NCBI GenBank assembly: GCA_000995185.1
Contig: LCET01000001.1
Location: 29,327 to 93,326, forward strand
Source of the DNA: Candidatus Woesebacteria bacterium GW2011_GWC1_42_9
Lineage (GTDB): Bacteria > Patescibacteriota > Microgenomatia > UBA8517
Direction: 5' to 3'
Length of the DNA: 64,000 nucleotides
A program made the position numbers and the translations under genes. Below are positions 1-38,024 of this stretch, one piece after another. Below the pieces are notes generated by a model. The model saw only the letters and a list, made by a program, of their open reading frames with translations. It had not been told where the DNA came from and made no database searches. Within the stretch, counting starts at the first letter, position 1; each line of letters opens with the position of its first letter.

Positions 1-1
1 T

Positions 2-2435: not shown

Positions 2436-2439
2436 AGGG

Positions 2440-13514: not shown

Positions 13515-15205
13515 AAGTAAAGTATTGCAAATTAGTATTAATTTTGATTATTTTTATCGCTTCATTTTTGAGGTTGTGGAGACTTGATCAAGTACCTGTT
13601 TCTCTGTTTGGAGATGAGTTAGATGTTGGCTATCATGCCTATTCGATATTTAAAACTGGTAAAGATTATATGGGTAATCCTTGGCCTCTGCATTTTCAAT
13701 CTCTTGCCGAGTGGCGGACCCCTCTTTATTTGTACAGTACGGTTCCGACAGTTGCTCTTTTTGGGGTTAGCCCTTGGGGAGTGCGTTTGCCGGCTGCGAT
13801 TTTTGGGATACTCGGTGTGTACATTTTCTTTTTTCTTCTAAAAGAGCTGACAAAAAATGAGAAGCTTTCATTAATAGGTACAGCCGTGTTGGCTTTTTCT
13901 CCTTGGCACATCCAATATAGCCGATCTGCGTTTGAGGTAACTCAACTTCTCTTCTTCTTATTATTGGGGATGTTACTTTTTTTTAAATCATTTAATAACG
14001 GAAAATGGTTGTGGCTGTCTATGGTCTCCTTTGCTTTAATGCCTTGGGTGTATAGTACTGCAAAGTTATTTACTCCCCTTATTTTGGTCTTTTTATTTCT
14101 TGTCTGGAGAAAAAAATTGTTTGGATTACCGAAAAAATATTTGATTCGCGGCGCGGTTGCTTTACTCATTTTTGGTGTGCCGATTGCATATAGCACAATA
14201 TTTGGAGGGGGCTCGCAAAGATTTGGGTATATTAGTGTTTTTACAAATCCAACTACGGAGGCAGAAGTTGGCACTTCGCGGCAGCTCGATGCTCGGATGC
14301 GAGGGGAGCTTGGAGAGGGATTGCATCCAACCTTTATTGACCGCGCTTTCCATAATAAATTTACCTTTTGGGGATCAAATATCGTGAATAATTATTTTGA
14401 GTCTTTCTCTGCTGATTTTTTGTTCAATGTGGGTGATCCAAACTTAAGGCACTCAATTAATGGTATGGGCTTATTTTACAAGATTGAGATTGTGGCATTT
14501 TTTGTTGGCTTAATATACTTCTTTTCAAGAAACAAAATTGACAAGAAGATAAGGCTTTTGGTGCTGTATTGGATTATTATAGGAGTTCTGCCGGCTTCAA
14601 TTACCAGGGATGGTGGTCATCATGCAACTAGATTAATAGTAATCCTGCCTCCGATGGTGATTCTTATCGCCTATGGGATCCACAATTTTAATAAATATGT
14701 TTTGTTAAGTTACTTTTTTCTGTTTATAGCTTGTTTTATTTTTTATCAACACAGTTTTTGGGTTCATAATCCATGGGGGAGTGAGCGCTGGTGGCATGCA
14801 GGTTTTAGAGAGTCAGTTCAATCTATTAAAGAGATTGAAAATGGGTATGAGAAGATTATTATCTCTACTTCAAGTGAACCACCTTGGACCTTTTTTGCGG
14901 CATGGTATGAATATCCGCCTGATAAGTGGCAAAGTGAGTTCCCGTTGGATAATGTAGTTAATTTAGAGGGGGTTGGAAATGTATCACATATTGATAAATA
15001 TTACTTTGGGAGTGTCAAAGGTGGATTATATGATTGGGGAAAGATACTTGATGGAAATACTTTATATCTTGCGTCTGAAAAAGACGTAAATGTTAATCTG
15101 ATTATGGAGCCGGATCGTACCCCCGGCGATCTAAAGTTAATTAAATCTATCCCTTACCCTTCCGGCCAACCAGCATTTTATCTTTTCTCAGGCAAGAGTG
15201 AATGA
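13511..15205 (+). CDS. GT-C glycosyltransferase, PMT_2/ArnT-like (GT39/GT83-type), tandem paralog 1 of 8
   Basis: 564 aa. An N-terminal TM helix is followed by the first-loop motif 'FGDELDVGYHAYSI..TGKDYMGNPWPLHFQS' (DE motif) and more than 10 TM segments, then a C-terminal soluble domain of about 150 aa. ATGA overlap with the upstream gene. Confidence 0.7.
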   Translation: MKVKYCKLVLILIIFIASFLRLWRLDQVPVSLFGDELDVGYHAYSIFKTGKDYMGNPWPLHFQSLAEWRTPLYLYSTVPTVALFGVSPWGVRLPAAIFGILGVYIFFFLLKELTKNEKLSLIGTAVLAFSPWHIQYSRSAFEVTQLLFFLLLGMLLFFKSFNNGKWLWLSMVSFALMPWVYSTAKLFTPLILVFLFLVWRKKLFGLPKKYLIRGAVALLIFGVPIAYSTIFGGGSQRFGYISVFTNPTTEAEVGTSRQLDARMRGELGEGLHPTFIDRAFHNKFTFWGSNIVNNYFESFSADFLFNVGDPNLRHSINGMGLFYKIEIVAFFVGLIYFFSRNKIDKKIRLLVLYWIIIGVLPASITRDGGHHATRLIVILPPMVILIAYGIHNFNKYVLLSYFFLFIACFIFYQHSFWVHNPWGSERWWHAGFRESVQSIKEIENGYEKIIISTSSEPPWTFFAAWYEYPPDKWQSEFPLDNVVNLEGVGNVSHIDKYYFGSVKGGLYDWGKILDGNTLYLASEKDVNVNLIMEPDRTPGDLKLIKSIPYPSGQPAFYLFSGKSE

Positions 15206-15714
15206 AGGGGCTACGAAATAAGTTGTTGTTGCTAATATCTCCAGGTTTTTGGTTTATGTTGCTAAACACTAAAACGGCAGTTGGTGAATGGATGAAAACA
15301 CCTCTTTATATTTCTAGCAAAATAGAATCAATCTTTGCTGTATATAACTTGAGATTTGTTTTTGATTTAAAAGATACTTCCATTTTTTCGCGGCTTTATT
15401 TTGGTAAGTTAGGACTTGTTTTTAACAATATGTCTGAGATATTAAATTTAATTTCTCCGAAAACTTTTTTTGTTGACAGTATGGTATTTGGAAAATGGGA
15501 AATGATCCCGTTCTTTCTCTTTCCTCTGTGGTTTATAGGTGTTTATATATTAGTGAAAACGAATCACTTCGTGCCCTTTCTTGTTTTGGTGTTTACTACA
15601 TTATTTGCATATCTATCGGGCCAACGTAGTGTGTACTTTTTATTTCCCTCATATCTTGTAAATATTTATATCGTTAGTTTTGGTTTAGGCTATCTCTTTA
15701 ATGAAAAAAAGTAG
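15202..15714 (+). CDS. small membrane protein; possible truncated derivative of the tandem GT-C family
   Basis: 170 aa with 3-4 TM segments. The segment 'ISPKTFFVDSMVFGKWEMIPFFLFPLWFIGVYIL' resembles the central 'F.SP.F.F..GD...' region of the full-length paralogs. ATGA overlaps on both sides. Confidence 0.4.
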   Translation: MKGLRNKLLLLISPGFWFMLLNTKTAVGEWMKTPLYISSKIESIFAVYNLRFVFDLKDTSIFSRLYFGKLGLVFNNMSEILNLISPKTFFVDSMVFGKWEMIPFFLFPLWFIGVYILVKTNHFVPFLVLVFTTLFAYLSGQRSVYFLFPSYLVNIYIVSFGLGYLFNEKK

Positions 15715-17275
15715 CAGATTTTTTGGACTAGGAATACTTGTCGTATTTTTACTAGCATTAGTATTAAGAACTTATCGTTTGCCGAATCTTCCGATCAGTC
15801 TTTCGATGGACGAGGTAACTTTTGGGTATGCAGCATATGCCGTTATGGAGACGGGGAGAGATGAACAAGGAAAATTACTTCCATTATATTTCCGCGGTAT
15901 CGGGGATTATAAGCCCCCAATCGATGTTTATCTAAAAATCCCGTTTATTTATATTTTTGGTTTAAACGAGCTTTCGGTTCGATTGCCAGGTGCGATATTG
16001 GGAAGTTTAAGCGTATTATTTGTAATTTTAATACTAATGACGTTGAAATTTAAAGAAAGATATTCACTATTAGCCGGTTTCTGGCTTGCAATATCGGGTT
16101 GGCACATATTTTTTTCAAGGGCTGGTTTTGAGGCGGTGACTGCGCTTTTCTTCTTATTGGCAGGATTATATTTTTTCATGTCTTGGGTTAGAAAAGGATA
16201 TGCTTTGTTTTTCTATTTGTTTATTCTCTCTTTTTCATTATCTGTTTGGAGCTATCATGCCGAGAGATTATTTATCCCGGTTCTTTCCATCGCCTTGATT
16301 GCTCTATATAAAAAAGAGTTTAAGAAACTTGTGACAAACAAAAGAGATTTACTGCAAATATTATTAGTTTTATTGTTTTTTTTGATCCCATTTTTATATA
16401 TTAGTTTATTTACCTTGGGAGTGAGGGCAAGGGCCGAGGATCTATGGATAGGAAAAGAAATCGGATTGTTGGACAACCCATATGGTTTTTTTCGATTATT
16501 GGTGGGTCAATATCTATCATATTTTGATCCGAGGTTTATTTTTTGGAAGGCGATCGGGATGACTCCTAAGGGATATACGGATTTGGGAATAATATATTTT
16601 ATTGACGTTCCAATAATTCTAGCTGGGATTTACTCGGTTATAAAATCAAAAAATAGAGATATAAAAAATATTGTGTATTTGTTTTTATTCTTGGGCCCTT
16701 TACCTGGGGCAGTTGCTAGGGGAGACGCTAGTCCAATTAGAATACTTCAGTGGGTTCCATTGTTTGCGATTTTGTATGCATCTGGGTCCGAATATTTTTT
16801 GGAAAAGCGTGTACCCAAAATAGCAATTTTGGTTTATTCGCTTGCTCTTGTGATTAATGCAAGTTTATTCTGGAGTATTTATCGCAATAGTTTCCATAAA
16901 TATTATGGAGATCTGTGGCACTATGGATATAAGGAGGCAGCTAATTATGTATGCGAGAATCATCAGCGCTATAATGAGATAGTGTTTACCGATAAATACG
17001 GAATTGAGTTACCAAAAGTTAAGACGATCCCGCATTATTATGTACTGTTTCATTGTGGAATTAGCCCAAAGAATTATCTTGATAATGATCAAATATTAAA
17101 TATCGAGTTTAGGCAGCCACAATGGAGACTAGATAAAGAAATGGAAAATGCTTTGTTAATTGGATCGCCTTGGGATTTTCCCGAAGATTTTGATGCCAAA
17201 AGAATAATGAAGATAATACAATTTCCGGGCGGTAAACCTGCGTTTTATTTTGTCGAAACAAATGAAAAAAATTAG
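15701..17275 (+). CDS. GT-C glycosyltransferase, PMT_2/ArnT-like, tandem paralog 2 of 8
   Basis: 'SMDEVTFGYAAYAV..TGRDEQGKLLPLYFRGIGDYKPP' and the same architecture as paralog 1. Confidence 0.7.
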   Translation: MKKSSRFFGLGILVVFLLALVLRTYRLPNLPISLSMDEVTFGYAAYAVMETGRDEQGKLLPLYFRGIGDYKPPIDVYLKIPFIYIFGLNELSVRLPGAILGSLSVLFVILILMTLKFKERYSLLAGFWLAISGWHIFFSRAGFEAVTALFFLLAGLYFFMSWVRKGYALFFYLFILSFSLSVWSYHAERLFIPVLSIALIALYKKEFKKLVTNKRDLLQILLVLLFFLIPFLYISLFTLGVRARAEDLWIGKEIGLLDNPYGFFRLLVGQYLSYFDPRFIFWKAIGMTPKGYTDLGIIYFIDVPIILAGIYSVIKSKNRDIKNIVYLFLFLGPLPGAVARGDASPIRILQWVPLFAILYASGSEYFLEKRVPKIAILVYSLALVINASLFWSIYRNSFHKYYGDLWHYGYKEAANYVCENHQRYNEIVFTDKYGIELPKVKTIPHYYVLFHCGISPKNYLDNDQILNIEFRQPQWRLDKEMENALLIGSPWDFPEDFDAKRIMKIIQFPGGKPAFYFVETNEKN

Positions 17276-18542
17276 TCTTAAAAAGATATTTCTGTTTGCT
17301 TTTTTGTTTCGTTTGATATTTGCCTTTTGGATATGGCATCCAGATTTGAATAATCATATTGATTGGGGTATTAGGTTTTGGGATTATGGAGCGAAAGGGT
17401 TTTATGCGCCTGAATCGAATGTGTGGAATTATACTTGGCCGAATCAGCCCCCGGGAACGATTATAATTTTTGCATTCATATATAAATTATTTAAGTTCAT
17501 ATTTTCATTCTTTTGGTTTTTGAATATAAAGATTCCTTTGTTCCCTTCTCTTGTAATGCTCTTTTTGGAAGATCGTTTATACCCCGCCCTACTTCAACTA
17601 CCGGCGATATTATCTGATTTAGGAATGGCATACTTGATCTACAAAATCCTTGTTAAGTGGAAAAATGTTCAAACTGCGAGGTTTGGAGCGATACTTTTTT
17701 TATTCAATCCTATTATTTGGTATAACTCGGCGGTTTGGGGACAGACCGATGCAACCGTGAATTTTTTTGGGCTTCTTGCTCTATATTTCTTGCTAAATAA
17801 GAAGCTTACGAAAAGCCTCCTTGCGATTGCTATCTCGCTTTATATAAAAGTTTCTTTGGCTATTTTTCTCCCTCTCTTTGCTATTGTTATTGTACGCCAG
17901 AGGCATAAAGTTATAAACATCGTTAAATCTTTATCATTTCCGGTTTTGATTATTCTTGGGGTCACTCTATTTTTTTCGACGAAGGTAGATCCAGCTACAT
18001 GGCTTTATAATATTTATACTAAAAAAGTATTGACCGAACAGCTCCAAGTGATTACGGCAAATGCGTTTAATTTGTGGGCAGCTTTAACTGGCATACATGA
18101 ACAACCTCATATATTGAAGCTTGGGCCGTTGAGTTATCAGTACTGGGGCATGGTTTTGACAGGATTGGTGTTGGCCCCAATTTTTTGGAAATTGTGGAGA
18201 AATCAAGATAAAGAAAATATCTTTTGGTCATTTGTTCTACTTGCGTTTTCGGTGTGGATGTTTAAAACAAACATGCATGAGAGGTATTTATATCCGCTGT
18301 TTCCTTATTTGACCATATTGGTTGCCCGGGACAGAAAGCTGCTTCCAATTTATTGGTCGCTCTCTGGGATTAATCTATTGAATTTGTATAATTTTTGGTG
18401 GGTTCCAAAGGTTGATTTGTTAGTTGGATTTTTGTCTTTTGGGAACAGAGTTATGCCAAGGATATTGGGATTAATTAATCTTGTTATTTTTGTTTATCTT
18501 GCGAGGTCAAGAAGGCTATTTCATCCCAACGATGTGAGCTAA
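17250..18542 (+). CDS. GT-C-like polytopic membrane glycosyltransferase, second family (paralog of 11450..12715)
   Basis: 'WIWHPDLNNHIDWG' N-terminus and 'MHERYLYPLFPYL' near the C-terminus. The TM-rich 430 aa layout is collinear with the ORF at 11450. Confidence 0.45.
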   Translation: MSKQMKKISLKKIFLFAFLFRLIFAFWIWHPDLNNHIDWGIRFWDYGAKGFYAPESNVWNYTWPNQPPGTIIIFAFIYKLFKFIFSFFWFLNIKIPLFPSLVMLFLEDRLYPALLQLPAILSDLGMAYLIYKILVKWKNVQTARFGAILFLFNPIIWYNSAVWGQTDATVNFFGLLALYFLLNKKLTKSLLAIAISLYIKVSLAIFLPLFAIVIVRQRHKVINIVKSLSFPVLIILGVTLFFSTKVDPATWLYNIYTKKVLTEQLQVITANAFNLWAALTGIHEQPHILKLGPLSYQYWGMVLTGLVLAPIFWKLWRNQDKENIFWSFVLLAFSVWMFKTNMHERYLYPLFPYLTILVARDRKLLPIYWSLSGINLLNLYNFWWVPKVDLLVGFLSFGNRVMPRILGLINLVIFVYLARSRRLFHPNDVS

Positions 18543-20069
18543 TACATTGCCTTCTTTGTCCTTCACCACAATTATTCTGTCAACTTCCTTATTAAGTCTG
18601 ACTTCTTCAAGAGGCAGACTGGAAGGGGGTCCTACGAGAAGTGTGTCTTTTGCATATTCATCTTGCCTAAACCAATAGACATCTCGAAATTCATATTTAC
18701 CGAAATTAAAATCCTTTCTGCCTTTGGGATTGTCAGCAATTTTTTTGATCTCCTTTTGATATTTGTCTGGTGAATAATTTGAATAGAATAGAATGAAAAT
18801 ATGCGGCTGTGCAGTTCTGGTTTCAAAAATAATCCTGTTATAATCACCCTCCACCTTTGATGATTCAGTTATGATTTCCTTCATCCCGAATTGCCATGCA
18901 CCTTTGGACGTACCTGGAAAGATATAAGTGATACTACCTATTAGGTGGGTAAGAGACATTATTGTCAGCGGGACGATAAAAAGGAGAGCAAGTTTGTGGC
19001 GCGCAATGGAGACGAAGCCGATACTTATAATAATAGTAAAAAATACGAATAGAGGAAGGACTCTTGCTGGGTAAAACCAATTCCAAGTGAGAATTGCTGG
19101 TAGCGGTGAGATGATAGTAAGCAGGGCAAGGTTCTTATATTTTTTTGGATTTTTGATGATATTAATGATCCCTGCCACCCAGAAAAAAAACCAGAAACTA
19201 TAGAATTCTGCAAAACCCGATATTTGTTGTGTTGGCTCGCCAGTCCCTCTAACAAAGAGGTTTATTGGAGAAAAATAAGATAAATATCTCGAATAGATGG
19301 CGTTAACCAAACTTGACGGTGAAAGATCACTATTCCTTTTTAAAGCGTGATAAAGTGAAGTGGACGACATGCGGCTAGTGGTCTCGGGATTGTTAAAATA
19401 AATAATTGCAAGCGGAAGCAATGTCAAAAGAAACAGCAAAATAGTTTTTTGATTTTTCCTAATCAGAAAGTGATTTGTAAACATAAAAAGTATAAAAGTG
19501 ATTGGTGCAAGGATTTTTTCTGAGTGGTAAGAATATATGGAAAGTGAGAGCAGAAATACAGCCGACACGAGGTGCTTACCGGGAGACTTTGAGTTTATGA
19601 TAAGACAATAAACTCCAGCTAGATAAAAGAGAAGAGCTAAGTTCGCCTCAAATGCTGCCCTTGAAAAGAATATTGCCCAGGGTGATATTGAAATTGCGAG
19701 AGAAGCAAACATTCCGACAATTCGGTTATTAGTTAAATTCTTGGCGAGAAAGTAGGTGACTACTATGATCATGGTTCCAGAAAGAGAAGATAAGAGTCTC
19801 ACCGAGATTTCATTTAGACCAAGGAAATATATAAAAGGAATTGAAAAATAGGCGTAGGCAGAAGATTTATAGTCATCAAAAGACCTTAATAGTATTGGTA
19901 ATTTATATCCAAACTCATCTCTTCCAGTTTTGGACAGGGAATAGGAGTTATATCCGAGGGCAACTTCATCCCAGTTTAACGCAGGCGGAGAGTGATGAAG
20001 CCATAATGCTCTCAAGCCAAATCCAAGCAAAATAATTGACAAGAGGATTACTTTTGTATGCCTATCCAT
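18516..20069 (-). CDS. GT-C glycosyltransferase, PMT_2/ArnT-like, tandem paralog 3 of 8 (inverted orientation)
   Basis: 'NWDEVALGYNSYSL..TGRDEFGYKLPILLRSFDDYK', same architecture. Its 3' end overlaps the convergent upstream gene by 27 nt. Confidence 0.7.
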   Translation of the reverse strand: MDRHTKVILLSIILLGFGLRALWLHHSPPALNWDEVALGYNSYSLSKTGRDEFGYKLPILLRSFDDYKSSAYAYFSIPFIYFLGLNEISVRLLSSLSGTMIIVVTYFLAKNLTNNRIVGMFASLAISISPWAIFFSRAAFEANLALLFYLAGVYCLIINSKSPGKHLVSAVFLLSLSIYSYHSEKILAPITFILFMFTNHFLIRKNQKTILLFLLTLLPLAIIYFNNPETTSRMSSTSLYHALKRNSDLSPSSLVNAIYSRYLSYFSPINLFVRGTGEPTQQISGFAEFYSFWFFFWVAGIINIIKNPKKYKNLALLTIISPLPAILTWNWFYPARVLPLFVFFTIIISIGFVSIARHKLALLFIVPLTIMSLTHLIGSITYIFPGTSKGAWQFGMKEIITESSKVEGDYNRIIFETRTAQPHIFILFYSNYSPDKYQKEIKKIADNPKGRKDFNFGKYEFRDVYWFRQDEYAKDTLLVGPPSSLPLEEVRLNKEVDRIIVVKDKEGNVLAHIVGMK

Positions 20070-21295
20070 AGCTCTTTACCGTGTTCAAAGACGACTTCGT
20101 CTTCTCCTTGTATTTTGTCAATTAGATCAATATTATTCGGAATAATTTCAGTATCAGTGTTCTTCCCTTTTCCCACAAATTCTCCTGAGAGCCCAATGTA
20201 TAAATTCTCAGAGTTATTTTCTTCAGCAAAATAATATGATTTATAAGTGATATTGTTACCCTCAAAATAGTAAGGGATGAACGTCTCAGTGGGTCCAAAT
20301 CTCTGGCTGATTATTATCTGGGGGTAATTATCACTATTTGAATTAAGCCAGCTTCCAATTTTCTGGTAATAGATTAAATCTGTATTTAGAAATTTTTGAG
20401 GGAATTTGTGGTAGAACGCCAAATATTGCGTTGATGAAAAAAATGATAGAAGTAGTAGGAAGTATAGTGCAAACGATGATAGTTTCTCCTCGATATTTTT
20501 GATACCGTTGTAATAAACACTTGCAATAAGGGGAATAACTAAAAAACTAGAATCGGCTAGGTTTTTTTTCTCAAAAATGAGGAATATTCCCACCCCACAC
20601 GCTCCAAGAAATATGAGTTTTGCGCGGGGCTTATATTTAAGTAATCCAAAAAAAACAATAGGGATTTGCCAAGTAAAAAGAATTAATGGATTATTTTTTG
20701 GGGAAAGCCCGCTAAGTTTTATCAATTCATAGGAATCTTTAGGAGATGACCATTGTTCAAAGTCAAAGAAGCTAATAAAGTGAGAGATGGAAATATCGAC
20801 AACATATGTCAACTTGTTATAAGTGATCTTTCTGATTAGATGTTCAGAGATAAATTTTTGTTTTTCATTTACCTCAAGAGTTGCCCGTGCCAAGTCATAA
20901 TTTTTAAGAAAGATTTTTAGTGAGCGATTATTTTGAAGGGCAGTAAAGGTGAGTATAAAGATTAAGATGATTAATGGAGTATTATATTTTTTGGTTCGAT
21001 AGTATACCGCTGATAAGAAGAGAATAATGGTCTCAATAATTCTAAATTCATAAATATAGAGACACCAAGGAATGGTGATATAAAAAAAAAGTCTTTTGGC
21101 GTTGTTTTCTGCAAACATTTGAAAGGCAGATACGAGTATAAATAAGGCAAATATTTTTAGAATATAATTATTGAAGTGGATAAATATCTTGGAACTTGCA
21201 ATCTCAAAATTTACAGGGAGAGGCATTAATATAATTAAAATTATATTAATAGTAATAATTAGAGCGATTGCGACTGGGAAAATGTGACTTTTCAT
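20048..21295 (-). CDS. polytopic membrane protein of unknown function (possible glycan polymerase/ligase-type)
   Basis: 415 aa with about 10 TM segments and a C-terminal hydrophilic tail of about 100 aa. Co-oriented with, and overlapping, the ORF at 18516..20069. No recognisable motif. Confidence 0.4.
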   Translation of the reverse strand: MKSHIFPVAIALIITINIILIILMPLPVNFEIASSKIFIHFNNYILKIFALFILVSAFQMFAENNAKRLFFYITIPWCLYIYEFRIIETIILFLSAVYYRTKKYNTPLIILIFILTFTALQNNRSLKIFLKNYDLARATLEVNEKQKFISEHLIRKITYNKLTYVVDISISHFISFFDFEQWSSPKDSYELIKLSGLSPKNNPLILFTWQIPIVFFGLLKYKPRAKLIFLGACGVGIFLIFEKKNLADSSFLVIPLIASVYYNGIKNIEEKLSSFALYFLLLLSFFSSTQYLAFYHKFPQKFLNTDLIYYQKIGSWLNSNSDNYPQIIISQRFGPTETFIPYYFEGNNITYKSYYFAEENNSENLYIGLSGEFVGKGKNTDTEIIPNNIDLIDKIQGEDEVVFEHGKELWIGIQK

Positions 21296-21322
21296 TTATC
21301 TGTCATTTGCAAGTATAATTAA

Positions 21323-22975
21323 ATGGTTATGAATAAGATAGTTCTATTTGTGCTAGGATTGGCCTTTTTTCTTAGGATATATGGACTTAGTAATCATCCG
21401 GCAGGTTTCACTCCTGATGAAGCTTCATTTGGTTATGACGCGTATTCGATTTTGAGAACTGGTCGTGATCAATGGGGTAATTTCTTTCCTCTTAGCTTTA
21501 AATCTTTCGGAGACTACAAAATGCCTATATATGGGTATTTGACTATTCCTTCTGTTGCAATATTTGGATTAAATGAATTCGCCGTGAGGCTACCGAATGC
21601 CATTTTGGGCATACTTGCTGTATTGGGTACATATTTATTGGTTGATGAGGTTTTTAAAGACAAAAGGACCGCTTATTTGACAGCCTTTTTGTTAGCTGTC
21701 TCTTCATGGCATATTTCAATGTCTCGAGGAGCTTTTGAGGCCAACCTGACTACTTTTTTTATGCCTTTTGGAATATTTCTTTTTTATAAGGGGGTAAAGA
21801 ATTCGAAATATTTTATATGGTCGGCTACTTTTTTTGGCTTAAATCTTTTTACTTATCACTCAGCCCGCTTGGTTACTCCACTAATTGTGGGGTATTTAAT
21901 CGTAGATAATCGTGCAAATTTGAAATTGAGCAAAAAAATGAGATTCCCAATTGGAATTTTTGGACTATTTTGCATAGGCGCTTTGTATACATATCTTACT
22001 GGATCAGGGTCAAGGGCGGTTTCCGCTGGGATATTTAGTTTGGCAAGCAATGTTGGTGGTCAACGTTATGGTGCGGTTATGGTAGGGCTCCCGGATTTTT
22101 TGGCGAGAGTTTTTAATAATAAACTTACTTATCTTTTTTCTATTTTCTTGGGTAATTACGTATCGTATTTTTCCCCGCAGTTTTTATTTACACAAGGTGC
22201 TGGTGAAGGGACATATGGGATGCTCCCAGGTAGAGGTTTGCTTTATTTGATTGAATTGCCTTTACTAGTAGGATTTGTTTGGGGATGGGCATCCGGAAAA
22301 ATAAAGAAGGTTAACTGGCTTGTTGTTTGGCTATTGATAGCACCGGTTCCTGCGGCGTTGTCGATTGGTCCGGGATATGCAGCCAATCGTGCTGTAATTA
22401 TGATGCCGGCTATTTCGATTATTCTGGGCCTTGGCGGCGTACATGTTTTTAAGGAACTCGCGCGATATATTGATCAAAAAATATTAGTTTTCATCTATCT
22501 GTCTATGTTTTTGCTTGGTTTTGTCTTTTTCATTGAAGATTATTTTATTCAACAACCGTCTCGTGAGGCGAAGACGATGATCTATGGCCAGCGGGAATTG
22601 TTTGGCTATTTAGCTCAAATTGAGGGGGATTACCATCAAATAATTATTTCAAAAAAGATTTCTGAGGGACATGTTTATCTAAGTTTTTATAATGGATTTG
22701 ATCCAGCTGAATACCAATCAGAAATTAATTCGTGGGGTTTTGACGAAGGGAAATATAGTTGGGTTGATCAAATCCCAAAATATACTTTAGGAAAATTTGT
22801 GTTCCAGAATATAGATTGGTCATTTCATTCAAGGGTTCCACAGGTATTGTTAGTTGGTGAACCAGGTGAATTCCCTGAGTCCACAGAAGCCATCAAAAAA
22901 ATACTTTATCCAAACAAAACAGAGGCTTATTGGATAGTTGCTCCGACGCAAGAGCTTTATGCGAATAACAAATAA
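21323..22975 (+). CDS. GT-C glycosyltransferase, PMT_2/ArnT-like, tandem paralog 4 of 8
   Basis: 'TPDEASFGYDAYSI..TGRDQWGNFFPLSFKSFGDYKMP', same architecture. A TATAAT hexamer lies 4 nt upstream of the first ATG. A second ATG at 21329 is also possible. Confidence 0.7.
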   Translation: MVMNKIVLFVLGLAFFLRIYGLSNHPAGFTPDEASFGYDAYSILRTGRDQWGNFFPLSFKSFGDYKMPIYGYLTIPSVAIFGLNEFAVRLPNAILGILAVLGTYLLVDEVFKDKRTAYLTAFLLAVSSWHISMSRGAFEANLTTFFMPFGIFLFYKGVKNSKYFIWSATFFGLNLFTYHSARLVTPLIVGYLIVDNRANLKLSKKMRFPIGIFGLFCIGALYTYLTGSGSRAVSAGIFSLASNVGGQRYGAVMVGLPDFLARVFNNKLTYLFSIFLGNYVSYFSPQFLFTQGAGEGTYGMLPGRGLLYLIELPLLVGFVWGWASGKIKKVNWLVVWLLIAPVPAALSIGPGYAANRAVIMMPAISIILGLGGVHVFKELARYIDQKILVFIYLSMFLLGFVFFIEDYFIQQPSREAKTMIYGQRELFGYLAQIEGDYHQIIISKKISEGHVYLSFYNGFDPAEYQSEINSWGFDEGKYSWVDQIPKYTLGKFVFQNIDWSFHSRVPQVLLVGEPGEFPESTEAIKKILYPNKTEAYWIVAPTQELYANNK

Positions 22976-23594
22976 TGTGCGTCATCTTTTGCTATTTTTT
23001 GTTTTGTGTCCTGGTTTTTGGTGGGGAATTATTAACTCGACCAATGTTTTTCGTGAAATAGGTAAATCTCCTCATTATTTTCAGGGTAAATTGGGATCAA
23101 TTTATAGCTATGAGAGGACTGAGAGAATTAAGGCTACCAAAAATGCCAATGTTGACCTTGGGTTGCCAGGTAGACTTGTAGGAGGTTTTTTCTTTAATGA
23201 ATTTACAATAGTAGTCGATGAATTTTTTGATCTTACGTCGTTTTTGAGCCCCCGATTTTTTTTCCAAGCAGGCGATGGTAGTTTGATGTCTCCGCCTCGT
23301 ACTGAGCCAATTCCATTGGTTTTGTTTCCTGCATGGGTTTTAGGGATTATTACCATTGTAAGAAAGAAAAACTTTGGGCTATTAAAGATATTGATAATTT
23401 TGGTATTTATTCCCTACATATTGGGTCAAAAAAATCTTGTTTTCCTCTGGCCGGTGATGATTCTTTATATATTTATAGCAAGGGAAGGGATTATGAATAT
23501 TGGAAACATCAAAACGAAAAATAATTATCTTCATCTTTTTGTTGTTTATGGAGTTTTTGTTGTATTAAGAAGTTTTTATCTTTTATTACGGTAA
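22938..23594 (+). CDS. truncated paralog or remnant of the tandem GT-C family, central TM segment only
   Basis: 218 aa. 'GLPGRLVGGFFFNEFTIVVDEFFDLTSFLSPRFFFQAGDGS' matches by eye 'GLPDFLARVFNNKLTYLFSIFLGNYVSYFSPQFLFTQGAGEG' in the upstream paralog 21323..22975. It lacks the N-terminal DE-motif region. Confidence 0.45.
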   Translation: MLRRKSFMRITNNVRHLLLFFVLCPGFWWGIINSTNVFREIGKSPHYFQGKLGSIYSYERTERIKATKNANVDLGLPGRLVGGFFFNEFTIVVDEFFDLTSFLSPRFFFQAGDGSLMSPPRTEPIPLVLFPAWVLGIITIVRKKNFGLLKILIILVFIPYILGQKNLVFLWPVMILYIFIAREGIMNIGNIKTKNNYLHLFVVYGVFVVLRSFYLLLR

Positions 23595-23595
23595 T

Positions 23596-25212
23596 ATGAA
23601 AGGAATTCGTTTATGCCCACTGTTAATTGTCTTTATCCTAGCTTTTAGTTTTCGTTTCTATAAATTGTCTTCATATCCGGTTAGTCTATCTATTGATGAG
23701 GTGGGGTTTGGATACAATGCATATTCCATAATAAAAACGGGTAGAGATGAATGGGGGATGAAAATGCCATTAGTCTTTAGGGCGATAGGGGATTACAAGC
23801 CGGCAATCGATATTTATCTCACTGTGCCCTCGGTTTATCTTTTTGGTTTGACGGAATTTGGAGTAAGGTTCCCTACCGCACTGCTTGGCGCTTTAACTGC
23901 CGTAATCTTTGTAATGATTTTATTTGAGTTTGGGTTATCACGACCTGCGTCTATTCTTGGGGGTCTTTGGCTAGCGGTAAATCCTTGGCATGTACATTTC
24001 TCCAGGGGAAATTTTGAGGCCATCATCGCGCTTTTCTTTTTGCTAGTTGGGGTATGGAGTTTGCTTCGTTGGAATAAAAGTATGAAAAATAGATATTTAA
24101 GTTTGAGTGTAATGGCTTTTGCCTTGTCTGTTTGGAGTTATAACGCAGAACGGCTGTTCTCTCCCTTATTATTTTTAATCTTGAGCTTTCTGCTTAGGGG
24201 AAATTTGAGAGTTATAATTAGAAATCCCAAACTTCTTATCGCACCGTTAGTTATTTTACTTATCTTTATAACGCCGTATTTTTATCTAGGCTTTTTTACC
24301 GAAGCGATTAGATCTAGACCTTTATCAACATCCATTTTTCGAGAGGCAGGATTAATGGACTCCCTCCACAGAGGAACATATGTCAATTGGATAGAGAGAC
24401 TATTGGATAATGATATTTATTTAATTTTTAGGCATTGGGCGGGAAAATATTTGAACTATTTTGATCTAAGATTTTGGTTTTGGAAAGGAATGGGTTACAC
24501 CCAGCCTGGAGATCCTGATTTGGGGCTTTTTTACATTGTCGATGTAATCCCGATATTATCAGGGACATACCTCGTCTTTTCAAGTAAAAATAAATTATTT
24601 AGAGCCATTGCGGTCACCTGGTTATTTTTGGGCCCACTCCCGGCGTCATTAACAATGAACGAGCAACATACAATAAGATCTCTGACTTGGCTTCCTTTTT
24701 TTGGATTCGCTTATGCGAGTTCTATCGAGTTTGTAATTAAAAATGTTCGGAGATTGAGGACAATTTCTGTAGTATATTTTGCGTTGCTTGCTGTTAATAT
24801 TGCGTACTTCGCTAACTTATATTTTGTGCATTATCCAAAATACTATTCAGAGTATTGGCAATACGGGTACAAGGAAATAGCTCTTTATGCTTGTGGTCAC
24901 ATAGATGAGTATAATGAGGTTATCATTACCGACACTTTCGGTAGCTTGGGGCCCTTAAATACTGGTATTCCATACGCCTATGTTCTATTTTACTGTCAAT
25001 ACGATCCGAACACTTTTCTTGCAAATGGGAGGAGGATTTCGAAGATATCTTTTCGCAGGCCTGACTGGCCAAATGACTCACTGCAAAAAAATAGACTATT
25101 AATTGGTTCTCCCTGGGATTTAGATATTCAGGAAATCCCCATGGAGGCTATAATTAGAGTGACTTATTTTAAAAATAAACAAAGGTCATTTATTTATGCG
25201 GATACTAGATAA
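23596..25212 (+). CDS. GT-C glycosyltransferase, PMT_2/ArnT-like, tandem paralog 5 of 8
   Basis: 'SIDEVGFGYNAYSI..TGRDEWGMKMPLVFRAIGDYKPA'. Confidence 0.7.
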   Translation: MKGIRLCPLLIVFILAFSFRFYKLSSYPVSLSIDEVGFGYNAYSIIKTGRDEWGMKMPLVFRAIGDYKPAIDIYLTVPSVYLFGLTEFGVRFPTALLGALTAVIFVMILFEFGLSRPASILGGLWLAVNPWHVHFSRGNFEAIIALFFLLVGVWSLLRWNKSMKNRYLSLSVMAFALSVWSYNAERLFSPLLFLILSFLLRGNLRVIIRNPKLLIAPLVILLIFITPYFYLGFFTEAIRSRPLSTSIFREAGLMDSLHRGTYVNWIERLLDNDIYLIFRHWAGKYLNYFDLRFWFWKGMGYTQPGDPDLGLFYIVDVIPILSGTYLVFSSKNKLFRAIAVTWLFLGPLPASLTMNEQHTIRSLTWLPFFGFAYASSIEFVIKNVRRLRTISVVYFALLAVNIAYFANLYFVHYPKYYSEYWQYGYKEIALYACGHIDEYNEVIITDTFGSLGPLNTGIPYAYVLFYCQYDPNTFLANGRRISKISFRRPDWPNDSLQKNRLLIGSPWDLDIQEIPMEAIIRVTYFKNKQRSFIYADTR

Positions 25213-26878
25213 GCTAACAAGTCCCGGGGTATTGCTATCTTTGATAGTAATTAATGCGTTTATATTAAGGATTATATTTCTGGATAAAACTCCCCCCTCC
25301 CTTAATTGGGATGAAGTTAGCCACGGATATAATGCCTATTCTATATTGAAGACCGGGAGGGATGAATGGGGAAAGTCTTTTCCTCTTATTTTTCGGGCGT
25401 ATGGAGATTACAAACTACCGGTGTACATTTATGCGGTAGCGGTTAGCGAGTTCTTTATTGGTCCAAGTGAACTTGCAGTTCGATTGCCATCAGCATTAGC
25501 TGGCACATTCAGTGTTTTTTTTGTATACCTATTTACTTACGAGCTATATAAAAATAAAAAAGTTGCATTGTTTTCAGGGGTATTGGTGGCGATTGAACCA
25601 TGGGGATTATTCCTTTCTCGTATCGCCGTTGAAGCAAATCTCGCGCTAATGTTCATTATTTCTGGAGCATATTTTTATATCCGTGGTGTTAGGTTGAGAT
25701 CAAGTAGTATATTGATTGGAATCTCATTGTTAGGAATTTCTGCTTGGACTTATAATTCTGCTAGGATATTTTCTCCATTGTTTTTATTTGGTTTGGCTTT
25801 TATCTATCAAAGAGAAACAAAAGAATTTATTAAGAGAAGGGTGGCCAATCTTGTCCTCTCAATATTATTGATATGCGGTTTGTTTCTGACTATGTTTTGG
25901 CAATTGACCGCCTCAAGCGGGCTTGCACGATACGCCAACGTCCAGATAATAAATGATGGAGCTATTTCTAGGATCGTTGAATCTAGAAATACATCGGAAC
26001 TCCCGGGAGTTTTACCTAGGGTAGTCTATAACAAGGGAACATTCTTCGTTAACGAATACGTAAGAAATTATATATCACATTTTTCACCCACTTTTTTATA
26101 TCTTAAGGGTGGATCGCATTATCAATTTAATATCCCAAATTTTGGACTCCTTTACCTAGTTAATGCGCCTTTTTTGCTCATAGGTATTTTGCATTTAATC
26201 AAAAATAGAAATGTGAGCAGTAAAGTTTTATTGTTATGGATTATAATTGCTCCGATTGCCGCAAGTTTTACTCGCGAATCTCCGCATGCCTTAAGGTCAA
26301 TACTAATTATTCCTATTCCTATGATTTTATCGGCACAAGGGATAATAGTTTCTTGGGAAAGTCTAAAAAATAATCAAAACAGGATGATATTTATGCTACT
26401 TTATTTAGTATTGTTATCTATTTCTGCATATAGTTTTTTAATCAGATACTTAGACTATAAGGATAAGTATTCGTGGGCATGGCAGTATGGGAACAAAGAA
26501 ATGGTCGACTACGTACGAGAAAATTACAATAATTATGACAAGATAATCATTTCTAAAAAATATGGAGAGCCGCACGAATTTTTATTATTTTACTGGCCTT
26601 GGAGACCAGATGTGTACCAAAACGACCAAAAACTTATCCGTTTTTACCAATCAAATTGGTATTGGGTCGATCAGTTTGACAAGTTTTATTTTGTAAATGA
26701 TTGGGATATACCAAACGATTCATCTATGCTGACTTTGGAGAGCGGCAAGGAGGTTGATTGCACAATAGGTAAGTGTTTATTGGTAAGTAGCCCTGAAAAA
26801 AACCTGCACGGATGGGATAAGGTTTATTCAATCAATTTTTTAGATGGTTCAAGAGCGTTTGATATTTATGAAAACTAA
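25196..26878 (+). CDS. GT-C glycosyltransferase, PMT_2/ArnT-like, tandem paralog 6 of 8
   Basis: 'NWDEVSHGYNAYSI..TGRDEWGKSFPLIFRAYGDYKLP'. Confidence 0.7.
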   Translation: MRILDKLTSPGVLLSLIVINAFILRIIFLDKTPPSLNWDEVSHGYNAYSILKTGRDEWGKSFPLIFRAYGDYKLPVYIYAVAVSEFFIGPSELAVRLPSALAGTFSVFFVYLFTYELYKNKKVALFSGVLVAIEPWGLFLSRIAVEANLALMFIISGAYFYIRGVRLRSSSILIGISLLGISAWTYNSARIFSPLFLFGLAFIYQRETKEFIKRRVANLVLSILLICGLFLTMFWQLTASSGLARYANVQIINDGAISRIVESRNTSELPGVLPRVVYNKGTFFVNEYVRNYISHFSPTFLYLKGGSHYQFNIPNFGLLYLVNAPFLLIGILHLIKNRNVSSKVLLLWIIIAPIAASFTRESPHALRSILIIPIPMILSAQGIIVSWESLKNNQNRMIFMLLYLVLLSISAYSFLIRYLDYKDKYSWAWQYGNKEMVDYVRENYNNYDKIIISKKYGEPHEFLLFYWPWRPDVYQNDQKLIRFYQSNWYWVDQFDKFYFVNDWDIPNDSSMLTLESGKEVDCTIGKCLLVSSPEKNLHGWDKVYSINFLDGSRAFDIYEN

Positions 26879-28493
26879 CAAGTATTTGGTTGCTATTGTA
26901 GTTTTATCTTTAGTTTTAAGGGTGTGGGATTTGGGAAATATCCCACCTCATTTGTCAAGCGATGAAGCTTCGTTAGGATACAATGCCTATTCAATTCTGA
27001 AAACTGGACGGGATGAATACGGTAAGTTGTTTCCAATCATTTTTAAGTCATTCGGCGATTATAAGCCTGGTTTGTATATTTATTTCTCAGTACCAGTCGT
27101 TGCAATTTTAGGATTGACGGAATTTGCAATCAGATTACCAAGTGCAATTATGGGGGGCGTTGCGGTTGTATTGGTATATTTTTTATCAAAAAATATTCTG
27201 AATTCACGAAAGATGGGGTTATTTACTGCGTTTGCGTTATCTATTAACCCGTGGCATATTCATTTTTCACGAGGGGCGTGGGAAGCAAATTTAGCGTTTA
27301 CCTTAACAATTGCAGGAATACTCGCTTTTCTTTTATCTTTTGAGAAGCGTAAATGGCTCTATATGTCGGCGTTGTTTTTTGGTTTAACACTGGTTGCATA
27401 TCAGGGAGCAAAATTAACATCACTTATCAGTTTAGTTGCTCTTATTCTTATATATTTCAAGGATTTGAAACAAATTGATAAACAAACTTTGGCAGGGAGC
27501 TTTTTTGTAGGGCTAATTATATCTTCACCGATAATTTACAGTTTCTTTGTAGGCCAGACAGGTAGACTTGAAGTTTTTAGCATTTTTTCTTATCCGAGAG
27601 AAAGTTGGTATGTAGATAAATTATTAAGTGAAGGGGAGGAACAGAGAGGTAGTGCAAGTTACTTGCTTTATCATTCAGAACTTTTAAGTTTTTTTCAAGG
27701 GATAGTAGGGAGATGGTTTAATCACTTTTCGGGAAGATTTCTATTTTTTCAGGGTGATTGGGAAAATTCTCGGCATGGCATACCAGGATTGGGGCAACTC
27801 CTTTTTGCAGATCTATTAGCGCTCTTGATCGGAACTTTTTATTTGATAAAAAGTAAGAGTATTGCAACAAAGAGTAAATTATTATTAATGATGTTGTTTT
27901 TGTTATCTCCGCTACCGGCTGCGCTTTCTCGCAGTCAGGTGAACGCGGTAAGAAGCATGAATATGATATTGCCTCTGGTAATTATCTTGGGGATTGGGAT
28001 GAACTATATGTTTGCTCAAAAAAGATGGGTATTTTTATATTTCGCAATGTATATATTTTCTTTTATTTACTTTGTAGATGCTTACTTCGTGCACCTCCCT
28101 GTTCATAATGTTCGGTCGTGGAATTGGGGGTATCGAGAAATGGTTAATTATGTATTAATCGTTGAGTCTGATTATGATGAAATTCAAATTCAACAAAGTT
28201 ATCGGCAGCCATACATATATTTCTTATTTTACGGAGGATATGATCCTTCTAGTTATCAAAAAACATCTCATTTATTAGAAAATGAGTTTGGAGATGTGGG
28301 GCTAGTCGAAAGTTTTGATAAATATGTTTTTAAGTCTATAAATTGGCCGGTTGGAGAGACCGATAAAAGGATCTTGTATATTGGGGACGAAGTAACGATC
28401 GCTCGTGAGCTTGGTTCATCAAAAAATTACGTTTTAGAAAAAGAGATTAAATATTTAGATGGGACAACCGCTTTTATGGCAATTCATGATTAA
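26868..28493 (+). CDS. GT-C glycosyltransferase, PMT_2/ArnT-like, tandem paralog 7 of 8
   Basis: 'SSDEASLGYNAYSI..TGRDEYGKLFPIIFKSFGDYKPG'. I prefer the ATG at 26868 (MKTNKY..), which overlaps the upstream stop by 11 nt. The ORF could also start at 26844. Confidence 0.7.
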   Translation: MKTNKYLVAIVVLSLVLRVWDLGNIPPHLSSDEASLGYNAYSILKTGRDEYGKLFPIIFKSFGDYKPGLYIYFSVPVVAILGLTEFAIRLPSAIMGGVAVVLVYFLSKNILNSRKMGLFTAFALSINPWHIHFSRGAWEANLAFTLTIAGILAFLLSFEKRKWLYMSALFFGLTLVAYQGAKLTSLISLVALILIYFKDLKQIDKQTLAGSFFVGLIISSPIIYSFFVGQTGRLEVFSIFSYPRESWYVDKLLSEGEEQRGSASYLLYHSELLSFFQGIVGRWFNHFSGRFLFFQGDWENSRHGIPGLGQLLFADLLALLIGTFYLIKSKSIATKSKLLLMMLFLLSPLPAALSRSQVNAVRSMNMILPLVIILGIGMNYMFAQKRWVFLYFAMYIFSFIYFVDAYFVHLPVHNVRSWNWGYREMVNYVLIVESDYDEIQIQQSYRQPYIYFLFYGGYDPSSYQKTSHLLENEFGDVGLVESFDKYVFKSINWPVGETDKRILYIGDEVTIARELGSSKNYVLEKEIKYLDGTTAFMAIHD

Positions 28494-30093
28494 GAAATAT
28501 AATTTATTATTAGTTGGAATTTTTGCTTTGGGATTGGTGTTGCGGCTATATCAACTAGGGAATTATCCTGCATTAAATGCCGACGAGGCAGCGCTTGGGT
28601 ATAATGCATACTCTCTATTGGAGACCGGTAAAGATGAACATGGAAACAGTTGGCCTATTCATTTCCAGTCCTTTAATGATTATAAGCCGGGACTGACAGT
28701 ATATTTGATCCTGCCGTTTGTGAAATTATTTGGGTTAAATATTTGGTCAGTAAGAATATTCCCAATGTTTCTGAGCTCTCTCACCATTCTTGCAATATAT
28801 TACCTAGTACAAGAACTTTTTAGTAACAGGAGATTTTCATTATTATCGGCATTGTTTTTATCTATTAGTCCATGGCATATTCATTTCTCTCGTGGTGCCT
28901 GGGAAGTGAGCATTGCGACATTTTTTATGACCTTCGGAATGTGGTCTTTTCTCCGCGCCCGATCATCCCCAAAATTATATTTATTGAGCGTTTTGGTGTT
29001 TGCAGCGTCGTTATACACTTATCATTCCGCCCGTTTAGTTACCCCATTGTTAGGGTTGGGATTATTGGTTTTCCAATACAAAAATATGTTGAACGACAAG
29101 GCGATTATTGGGTTATCAATTGGACTGGGTATTATAGTCTTAACCCCACTAATATTGGATTTGATGGGTCCAGCAGGTATTTCGCGTGCCTCAGGCGTAG
29201 GAATTACAGCTGATATGGGCACAGTTTCCCGAATTAATGAACAAAGAGGAGAACACGCAAACCAAGATGGCTTGTGGACAAAAGCACTCCACAATAAATT
29301 AGTGAATTTTGGTTTAGTCTTTACTAAAAATTGGAGTGATCATTACTGGGGAGAGTTTTTATTTAATTCTGGTGATGAGATCCAAAGAAATAAAGTACCT
29401 GAAATGGGGCAAATGTATATATTTGACATTATTTTTATTTTGATAGGGTTTGCCGGAATTGTAAAATTAAAAGTCAAAAATAATTGGAAACTTGTCATTT
29501 GGTGGCTTATTGTTGCCCCAGTTGCCTCCGCTTTAACCTTTCAATCTCCTCATGCTCTTCGCGCACATAATATGGTTATTCCGATGGTTATTATTAGTGC
29601 TTACGGGTTTTCGGTAATGATGAATAGAATCCATAGAGTAGGATTAATTTTGTTTATTGTTTTGATTGTTTTGGGTGTTAGCCGTTATCTTCATTTGTAT
29701 TGGGTACATACCGCGAAAGCGTATCCATATTCTTCTCAATATGGTGTGAGTGAATTAGTCGGGTATTTATCGGGGAAGACTGGTGAGTACAAAAAGATAT
29801 TGGTTACAGACAGATATGATCAGCCGTATATATTGTTTCTATTTTATTCTAAATTTCCTCCAGAAAAGTTTCAGCAAGAACATGTATTAACTGATAGGGA
29901 CAGGTTTGGATTTTCGACTGTCAGGGAGTTTGGGAATTATCATTTTGAGAGAATAGATTTTGAAAAAATTAGGGGTAGTTCTTCGGATAGTCTAATAGTG
30001 GGGACCTCTAAGGAAATCCCGTCGGATGCGAATATAGTTAAAACGATAGCTTTCCCAAATGGGGAAGATGCCTTTAGAGTAGTTGAAAACTGA
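28486..30093 (+). CDS. GT-C glycosyltransferase, PMT_2/ArnT-like, tandem paralog 8 of 8
   Basis: 'NADEAALGYNAYSL..TGKDEHGNSWPIHFQSFNDYKPG'. The ATG at 28486 (MIKKYN) overlaps the upstream TAA. Confidence 0.7.
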   Translation: MIKKYNLLLVGIFALGLVLRLYQLGNYPALNADEAALGYNAYSLLETGKDEHGNSWPIHFQSFNDYKPGLTVYLILPFVKLFGLNIWSVRIFPMFLSSLTILAIYYLVQELFSNRRFSLLSALFLSISPWHIHFSRGAWEVSIATFFMTFGMWSFLRARSSPKLYLLSVLVFAASLYTYHSARLVTPLLGLGLLVFQYKNMLNDKAIIGLSIGLGIIVLTPLILDLMGPAGISRASGVGITADMGTVSRINEQRGEHANQDGLWTKALHNKLVNFGLVFTKNWSDHYWGEFLFNSGDEIQRNKVPEMGQMYIFDIIFILIGFAGIVKLKVKNNWKLVIWWLIVAPVASALTFQSPHALRAHNMVIPMVIISAYGFSVMMNRIHRVGLILFIVLIVLGVSRYLHLYWVHTAKAYPYSSQYGVSELVGYLSGKTGEYKKILVTDRYDQPYILFLFYSKFPPEKFQQEHVLTDRDRFGFSTVREFGNYHFERIDFEKIRGSSSDSLIVGTSKEIPSDANIVKTIAFPNGEDAFRVVEN

Positions 30094-30094
30094 T

Positions 30095-30952
30095 ATGAAA
30101 TTATCTGTAGTGTTAGCCACAAAAAATGAGGAGGAAAATATAGGGGATTGCTTGAGGTCAGTCAGAGGAATTGCGGATGAAATAATCATTTACGATGAAT
30201 ATTCCACAGATAAAACGCGTGAGATTGCCAAAAAATATGAGGCTCATGTATTTAAATGGAGGCATCAAAAAAATTTTCATGAAACAAAACAAAGGGCGCT
30301 TAGAAAAGCAAAAGGGGAATGGATCCTTCAGCTTGATGCCGACGAAAGGGTCGGTAAAAGTTTGTCAGATGAGATTTCAAGAATAATTAACCTAAACCAT
30401 AAACAAATCAGGTCTCGAGAAATACCGCGAGAAAAAAGAAGGTTATTTGAGAAGCATCAGAAGCTTGTTGAAGAAAGGGATGGAGGAATCGGTAAAGTAA
30501 CTGGCGAAGTCGTTGCTTTTTTCATTCCAAGAGTTAATTATTTTTTAGGCAAGCCTTTAATACACGCTGGTGTGTATCCTGATGGGGTGATACGTTTAGT
30601 TAAAAATGGTAAAGCACATTTTCCGGCAAAGTCTGTTCACGAGCAGATAGTTATTGATGGAGAAGTGGCATGGCTAATGGGAGATTTGGAACACCACGAT
30701 TCTCCAACCTTAAGTAGATATTTGTTTCGCTTGAATCGATATACCGACTTGAGAGCAAGTGATTTTGCGAATAGTAAATTACCAAAAAATATATTTTTCC
30801 TTCTTTTCTACTCGACACTAAAACCATTTTTTGTATTTTTGAAGTTATTTATTAGACATAGAGGATATAAAGATGGAATTAGAGGATTTTTATGGTCGAT
30901 GTTTTCATCAATGCATTATCCGATTGCTTATTATAAATATTGGAGCATATGA
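30095..30952 (+). CDS. family 2 glycosyltransferase (WaaE-like)
   Basis: 'KLSVVLATKNEEENIGDCLRSV..DEIIIYDEYSTDKT' and 'QLDADERV'. The ATG at 30095 sits just after the upstream TGA. The six-frame track used an upstream TTG. Confidence 0.75.
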   Translation: MKLSVVLATKNEEENIGDCLRSVRGIADEIIIYDEYSTDKTREIAKKYEAHVFKWRHQKNFHETKQRALRKAKGEWILQLDADERVGKSLSDEISRIINLNHKQIRSREIPREKRRLFEKHQKLVEERDGGIGKVTGEVVAFFIPRVNYFLGKPLIHAGVYPDGVIRLVKNGKAHFPAKSVHEQIVIDGEVAWLMGDLEHHDSPTLSRYLFRLNRYTDLRASDFANSKLPKNIFFLLFYSTLKPFFVFLKLFIRHRGYKDGIRGFLWSMFSSMHYPIAYYKYWSI

Positions 30953-33151: not shown

Positions 33152-33154
33152 CTC

Positions 33155-35159: not shown

Positions 35160-35174
35160 ACTTGTTTACTGTCC

Positions 35175-35597: not shown

Positions 35598-35614
35598 TAT
35601 ACTCTGTATTTAGT

Positions 35615-37373: not shown

Positions 37374-37383
37374 CTTTTGCCCC

Positions 37384-37412
37384 TTGATTTTCTAATATCT
37401 GAGAATGATAAT
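37384..37412 (+). promoter_or_regulatory. candidate sigma70-like promoter (TTGATT, 17 nt spacer, TGATAAT) giving a near-leaderless transcript for the downstream ORF
   Basis: TTGATT at 37384-37389 and GATAAT at 37407-37412, preceded by TG, with a 17 nt spacer. The predicted TSS falls 3-4 nt before the ATG at 37423. In AT-rich DNA this could be chance. Confidence 0.25.
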
Positions 37413-37971: not shown

Positions 37972-38010
37972 CCTATATATTTGAGGTATCAACAAGCTTC
38001 ACATGATCCC

Positions 38011-38019
38011 TGATATAAT
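38011..38019 (+). promoter_or_regulatory. candidate extended -10 element (TGATATAAT) 8 nt upstream of the ATG at 38028
   Basis: An exact TGnTATAAT match lies in the 53 nt intergenic gap before the GT-C/discoidin gene. There is no convincing -35. Confidence 0.2.
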
Positions 38020-38024
38020 CACAA

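Follow-up and report, generated by a model that had tools for sequence, protein, structure and literature searches.

A half-size GT-C protein family conserved beside one clade of full-length GT-C glycosyltransferase genes in Microgenomates-type bacteria

Why would a glycosylation locus keep, between two complete GT-C glycosyltransferase genes, a short gene that resembles only the middle of such enzymes? The question is raised by the open reading frame (ORF) at 22938..23594 (plus strand) in a stretch of 64,000 nucleotides (nt) of contig LCET01000001.1 from Candidatus Woesebacteria bacterium GW2011_GWC1_42_9, which we refer to as the window and whose coordinates we use throughout. The original prediction described this ORF as a truncated paralog directly downstream of a full-length GT-C gene, either a decaying partial duplicate or a retained non-catalytic membrane subunit. 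We identified it as one member of a family of small membrane proteins under purifying selection, whose gene is joined to a full-length GT-C gene of one particular clade, designated D, lying downstream rather than upstream. The explanation that we favor, and consider somewhat more probable than its alternatives taken together, is that the small protein derives from the rear half of a GT-C enzyme and serves as a non-catalytic, co-translated partner of the D-clade enzyme.

The longest frame of the ORF opens at TTG 22938 (218 amino acids, aa), and its likely start is ATG 22959, in agreement with the 211-aa public annotation of UV74_C0013G0368, a hypothetical protein of Candidatus Woesebacteria GW2011_GWB1_43_14 to which the product is 100% identical. 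The identical protein was found on 10 contigs in public data. We therefore describe the gene as 22959..23594 (+), encoding a 211-aa stand-alone GT-C variable-module protein; the ORF overlaps the gene before it by 17-38 nt and abuts the gene after it. A second fragment of the same kind had been proposed at 15202..15714 (+), and it proved to be a true paralog (26% identity over 174 aa, E 1e-16 in pairwise BLAST). Against Pfam (PMT and PMT_2 included) and NCBIfam, both small ORFs gave nothing but noise at E<=1, and in library scans the small protein matched none of GtrA (PF04138), the SMR/DMT fold, and PIG-U (PF06728). Searching PDB sequences with the family returned nothing at E<=10. In word-indexed homologue searches the ORF retrieved only itself and the family alignment only five proteins.

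The relationship of the small protein to full-length GT-C enzymes emerges from profile comparisons. The BLAST match between the 22938 ORF and the upstream paralog at 21323..22975 is not significant alone (E 0.32), and matches of the small ORFs to full paralogs are generally weak (E 0.01-0.7). All of them fall on residues ~240-365 of the long proteins, and those of the 22938 ORF to five full paralogs converge on one central region. A profile comparison of the two small ORFs with eight full paralogs gave E 1.6e-4. Comparing a 76-member family profile with the window paralogs by hhalign gave a probability of 97.2% and E 2.9e-11 over 161 columns (residues 16-189 of the small protein against 216-384 of the full-length proteins), in an alignment that contains the pairing of LPGRLVGGFFFNEF.. 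with LPDFLARVFNNKL... first made by eye. Against an alignment dominated by homologues of the downstream gene, 23596..25212, the result was 96.1% and E 2.8e-9 (9-185 against 218-384). Moreover, a hidden Markov model (HMM) of the full-length enzymes finds the small proteins at E 7e-11 and 1e-9, and the small-family HMM finds paralogs of the 25196 type at E 1e-13 to 4e-15. The ORF thus aligns to the central region of the paralog family, as had been claimed for the upstream member, which is not its specific relative. When small proteins were aligned by MAFFT with rows in which small protein, linker, and D enzyme were fused, the last ~120 residues of nearly every small protein fell on the D central region; this misplacement is an alignment artefact, yet it shows the likeness of the two regions and is incidental support for their homology.

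Within the aligned core, F102, G105, and G129 of the small protein correspond to F295, G298, and G323 of the 23596..25212 product, and the Arg that is invariant among full-length enzymes (R361 in the same product) aligns to a non-basic residue. The N-terminal DE-motif region and the C-terminal soluble domain, whose absence was noted from the outset, have no counterpart in the small protein in either the profile alignments or the structural models. Enzymes of the GT-C(A) class consist of a conserved module with seven transmembrane (TM) helices and, after it, a variable module, which comprises four TM helices in ALG9 and ALG12 and provides most of the acceptor contacts (PMC13503287), and in ArnT a flexible loop, PL4, lies between TM7 and TM8 (PMC7801869). 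Compared with this architecture, the small protein lacks the seven-TM catalytic module with its Asp/Glu in the first extracytoplasmic loop and retains the homology and fold of the C-terminal variable TM module. In the hhalign register it therefore represents TM7, the long loop EL4/PL4, and a four-helix variable module (TM8-11), with the exact TM numbering tentatively derived from DSSP strings. Because the catalytic module is lost, the small protein would not be a glycosyltransferase by itself, and sugar transfer by it from a polyprenyl-phosphate donor appears implausible.

The AlphaFold2 model of the small protein, built from the family alignment, has a predicted local distance difference test (pLDDT) score of 94.7 and a predicted template modeling (pTM) score of 0.88. 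It contains five TM helices, of which the first (5-25) is kinked at a conserved Pro and is followed by a helical loop of ~95 aa and by helices at 120-135, 140-155, 164-179, and 184-210. Lys/Arg residues cluster at the N-terminus and in loops 136-139 and 180-184, so that by the positive-inside rule the long loop and the GQKN loop are predicted to be extracytoplasmic. In the model and alignments, the most conserved residues of the family sit at the periplasmic membrane interface. By fold, the model matches GT-C enzymes, not transporters, and is closest to ALG12/ALG9, Pmt4, and ArnT. The 23596..25212 product was modeled with a pLDDT of 95.5 and a pTM of 0.94 and shows, in order, a first TM helix, the DE-motif loop (D34/E35), a helix block to residue 209, a helix at 211-234, a helical loop at 240-295, TM helices at 314-328, 333-351, 363-383, and 387-417, and an alpha/beta domain at 425-538; PIG-U is among its fold matches. 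The central region of this enzyme is complete, which rules out that the small protein fills a gap in it.

An exhaustive HMM search with a two-sequence profile against 1.84 billion representative proteins, clustered at 50% identity, matched 94 representatives (85 of them at E<=1e-10), nearly all 130-230 aa long and matched end to end. One long protein was among the matches (634 aa, E 3e-4), and it was matched on its central region, 289-400. Common motifs of the family are SPxFWW in the first TM helix, ELRW, FYNK, SPRxYFQAGDGxxxSPxxVEPIP, GQ(K/R)N, and FLxP; the loop of the 22959..23594 product carries SPRFFFQAGDGS...TEPIP. Both window copies have the length and motifs of the family. The ratio of nonsynonymous to synonymous substitution rates (dN/dS) is 0.23-0.31 in independent orthologue pairs, and the family is therefore a genuine gene family under purifying selection. 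The hosts found here are only Microgenomates-type bacteria of the candidate phyla radiation (CPR), namely Woesebacteria, Amesbacteria, Shapirobacteria, and relatives. A literature search for a described accessory or truncated GT-C paralog in CPR bacteria found nothing relevant. The family is undescribed, has no Pfam or NCBIfam model, and is best characterized as a stand-alone GT-C variable module.

The position of the small gene in the genome is also conserved. The downstream partner in the window, 23596..25212 (+), is a D-clade full-length GT-C of 538 aa (PMT/PMT_2) in which the DE motif (D34/E35) is preserved; it begins 1 nt past the stop of 22959..23594. The 15202 gene is likewise followed by a D-clade full-length GT-C, 15701..17275 (+; 524 aa). 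Further loci (designated by L numbers) were fetched via the small-family motif PR[IFL]YFQ[AS]GD from an 18-sequence alignment, giving 5 genome and 24 metagenome loci; because sampling relied on this motif and on word-indexed searches, divergent members are underrepresented. On three contigs the sequence stops before the gene after the small one can be seen. At all loci with downstream sequence (2 in the window, 5 from genomes, and ~13 distinct ones from metagenomes), the next gene on the same strand is a full-length GT-C, at a distance of -35 to +7 nt. All of these downstream partners form one clade, D, in neighbor-joining trees, the only kind built, of which the first held 50 distinct full-length GT-Cs; the upstream and remaining paralog types stand apart, each as its own orthologous group across genomes. 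The deepest D branch consists of 15701..17275 along with the enzyme of L032.

The linkage also holds when it is approached from the enzyme. Eleven homologues of 23596..25212 were sampled (36-50% identity). Upstream sequence was readable for ten of them, and in nine a small-family gene (family HMM E 1e-19 to 1e-76) immediately precedes the homologue and ends a few nt inside its start. The exception, L033, is a sister lying outside the partner-bearing clade, which has bootstrap support of 78/100, or 100/100 with the partner-less sister included. The DE motif is invariant across the D clade. Conversely, the full-length gene on the other side in the window, 21323..22975 (+; 550 aa, termed the U type), is a frequent but non-obligatory neighbor: an upstream GT-C is absent at L003, L004, L013, L021, L034, L035, and L039, and at L003, L004, L034, and L039 the small/D pair has no further GT-C genes around it. 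What is conserved as a unit is thus a small gene plus a downstream D-type GT-C, and not, as originally proposed, a full gene plus a downstream fragment.

These observations bear directly on whether the gene is real and functional. Its being shorter than its relatives, its lack of the catalytic region, and its very low pairwise similarity to the paralogs would fit a functionless GT-C pseudogene fragment, and on one metagenome contig (L029, 656..1293) the small gene is split into two ORFs. A D-type gene is also split into two on another metagenome contig (L024, 5613..7200), and the two splits reflect either sequencing frameshifts or occasional real inactivation. Against decay stand the ~90 diverged representatives that keep length and motifs, the dN/dS values, the confident predicted fold, and a tightly packed position conserved across Woesebacteria, Amesbacteria, Shapirobacteria, and others, which together lead us to reject this half of the original prediction as very improbable and bear out its suggestion that something functional is retained. 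Also rejected, and given an even smaller chance, is an assembly or frameshift artefact that split one long GT-C gene, as the overlap with one neighbor and abutment with the other might suggest. Both neighbors are complete GT-Cs, each with a DE motif and a C-terminal domain; the three-gene arrangement recurs in independent assemblies; the identical protein is present on the 10 public contigs; and in syntenic genomes this position is occupied by the small gene instead of an intact long one.

A more serious alternative is independent handling of the lipid carrier by the small protein, which, with the polyprenyl-phosphate-binding half of the GT-C fold that it retains, would flip, scramble, deliver, or recycle polyprenyl-phosphate or polyprenyl-phosphate-sugar without a stable complex with the enzyme. 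Small proteins of the GtrA or ArnE/F type act in this way beside GT-C genes in three-component glycosylation systems. A small multi-TM protein encoded next to a GT-C, where GT2 genes resembling polyprenyl-phosphate glycosyl synthases abound, would suit such a role, as would the concentration of conserved residues at the periplasmic membrane interface. A scan of window ORFs turned up no GtrA domain, and three-component systems are a known pattern (PMC11127046). However, the small protein has no homology to a known flippase family and no Pfam or NCBIfam matches, and a Wzx-type flippase is present in the window. We regard independent carrier handling as unlikely because, of 8-10 paralogs, only one GT-C clade is paired with the small gene, strictly one to one, which points to a specific partner, and because a GT2-GtrA fusion adjoins the pair in L035, so that GtrA-type function can coexist with it. 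More speculative still, and in our estimation a long shot, is a trans-acting lipid-handling device that captures, flips, or hands over polyprenyl-phosphate-sugars or the released carrier for its partner enzyme or, in a milder form, an exchangeable acceptor-specificity subunit.

We hypothesize instead that the small protein is a non-catalytic partner of the D enzyme. Partial duplication of a PMT_2/ArnT-like GT-C(A) gene would have given rise to the small family, with TM7, EL4, and TM8-11 retained and the Asp-Glu catalytic module and C-terminal periplasmic domain lost. The small-family HMM scores best on the 25196..26878 type (43 bits, with similar scores in L001, L023, and L033) and below threshold on D-type enzymes, which makes a non-D paralog the probable ancestor of the family. 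Descent from the upstream paralog, 21323..22975, was considered and rejected on the basis of its BLAST E of 0.32 and the better scores of the 25196 type. The small gene is fixed immediately upstream of the D gene; since the two overlap or abut on the same strand, they are presumably co-transcribed and probably translationally coupled. The protein may sit in the membrane beside the D enzyme, where the conserved periplasm-facing loop and helix ends (SPRxYFQAGDG, VEPIP, GQ(K/R)N, and FLxP) could add a binding surface for the acceptor or the polyprenyl-phosphate-linked donor, much as variable modules do within GT-C(A) enzymes.

Several points weigh against this partnership. The physical association of the two proteins is a prediction from genomic linkage, and the D enzyme has a complete variable module of its own, so that the small protein makes up for no obvious defect. 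The paired set (~19 pairs) is too shallow for covariation analysis, and the small-protein tree, which agrees with the D tree for L002/L007, L003/L004, and L009/L036 and disagrees for other sister pairs, has too little resolution for co-phylogeny with D to be demonstrated. In addition, TM1 is missing in L032 and L038 (130-133 aa) and TM5 is missing in the 15202 product, so any interface must be formed by the loop and TM2-4. Of the second option in the original prediction, a retained non-catalytic membrane subunit, the retained non-catalytic membrane protein is supported, and its being a physical subunit is inferred.

GT-C enzymes have been described as a conserved catalytic module joined to a variable module thought to set substrate specificity. 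The conservation of the small family and its locking to one enzyme clade suggest that the variable module can fold and function independently. The small protein is thus a candidate non-catalytic partner for a bacterial GT-C and a compact, confidently modeled target for asking what variable modules bind. More generally, the assignment gives a structural identity to ~90 clusters of 'hypothetical proteins' in CPR genomes and allows more precise annotation of the large arrays of GT-C paralogs in Microgenomates. If the lipid-handling reading were true, carrier-lipid translocation or binding would require no more than part of the GT-C fold, with a bearing on the long-unsolved identity of the polyprenyl-phosphate-sugar flippase, while under the acceptor-specificity reading the D enzyme would be a two-component GT-C.

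The second small gene, 15202..15714 (+), encodes a divergent 170-aa member without the last TM helix, scoring 159 bits with the family HMM compared to 228 bits for the 22938 ORF. Its ATG overlaps the upstream stop (ATGA), and at its 3' end the gene shares 14 nt with the beginning of the one that follows. Short forms of 130-146 aa also occur (L032, 2603..3004; L034, 2564..3004; L038, 2127..2519), which begin inside the periplasmic loop and seemingly miss the first TM helix. As judged from these sequences, the invariant core of the family is the loop plus three TM helices. A Shine-Dalgarno-like candidate, GCAAGAG, predicted from sequence, lies at 22948..22954 (+), 4 nt before ATG 22959, and again at 15192..15198, 3 nt before ATG 15202, among 5 copies in the 64 kb. 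Both copies lie within the 3' ends of upstream genes that are not orthologous to each other, and most other genes of the locus have no obvious Shine-Dalgarno sequence.

In three loci, the pair of the 15202 and 15701 types is followed by a membrane protein of ~425-430 aa (window 17250..18542; L032, 4593..5882; L038, 4026..5303). The window copy has a PIG-U/EpsG-like Pfam match, and its N-terminus is visibly like that of the L038 copy (HPDxNNHIDWGIRFW..YTWPNQPPG); the L032 copy has no Pfam match and is grouped with them by position and length only. The small gene, the D gene, and this membrane protein gene may form a conserved three-gene unit.

The wider setting, region 1..40000 of the window, is a large, almost unbroken plus-strand glycosylation locus that includes GT2 and GT4 transferases, methyltransferases, a YfhO protein, a Wzx-type flippase, and two EpsG/PIG-U-like membrane proteins. 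It holds eight closely related full-length GT-Cs of the PMT/PMT_2 type (517-564 aa), at 13511, 15701, 18516 (minus strand), 21323, 23596, 25196, 26844, and 28459, and a more distant candidate at 38025 with a PMT_2 match. Two further membrane proteins, 777..2435 (552 aa) and 8409..9926 (505 aa), have 15-18% identity to the 21323 product and no Pfam match and are possibly very divergent GT-C members. The order U-type, small, D-type, 25196-type, 26844-type, and 28459-type (window 21323..30093) is kept in several Microgenomates genomes, being shared by L001, L005, L009, L023, L027, and L036. Such synteny indicates that the paralog array is old rather than a recent tandem duplication.

A third paralog without the catalytic module, 20048..21295 (-; 415 aa, no Pfam match), lies directly upstream of the full-length GT-C 18516..20069 (-), with a 22-nt overlap. 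Its residues 151-345 align to positions 265-460 of the full GT-C profile (hhalign 95.7%, E 1e-8), corresponding to the central region and the start of the C-terminal domain, and its first 150 aa are unrelated. In L002, a 269-aa protein (13687..14496, -) that the full-length GT-C HMM matches only at 252-399 (E 6e-7) is encoded directly upstream of GT-C 11994..13685 (-), the orthologue of window 18516..20069. BLAST detected no similarity between this protein and the product of window 20048..21295. Truncated variable-module paralogs placed before full GT-Cs may have arisen more than once.

Among known systems, the closest are the GT-C(A) enzymes of the PMT_2/ArnT/PMT type (CAZy GT39/GT83-like), with which the small protein shares TM7, EL4, and the four-helix variable module by profile and fold, as well as the predicted topology with the long loop outside, while lacking six of the seven conserved-module helices, the Asp/Glu loop EL1, and the C-terminal periplasmic domain. 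PIG-U/Gab1, the non-catalytic, lipid-substrate-binding subunit of GT-C fold in a larger membrane complex, the GPI transamidase, sets a precedent for a protein of GT-C origin that has lost catalysis. PIG-U, however, keeps the whole GT-C TM fold and works among unrelated subunits, whereas the small protein retains the rear half only and is paired with an intact GT-C paralog. The flippase components GtrA and ArnE/ArnF are likewise short multi-TM proteins encoded next to a co-oriented GT-C in loci that depend on polyprenyl-phosphate-sugars, but they are unrelated in sequence and fold; the small protein is larger, has a conserved 95-aa periplasmic loop, and is homologous to the enzyme beside it. 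Finally, yeast Pmt1-Pmt2 and mycobacterial EmbA-EmbB are also paired paralogous GT-C-fold proteins, although there each member is full-length and catalytic, while here one is half-size and non-catalytic.

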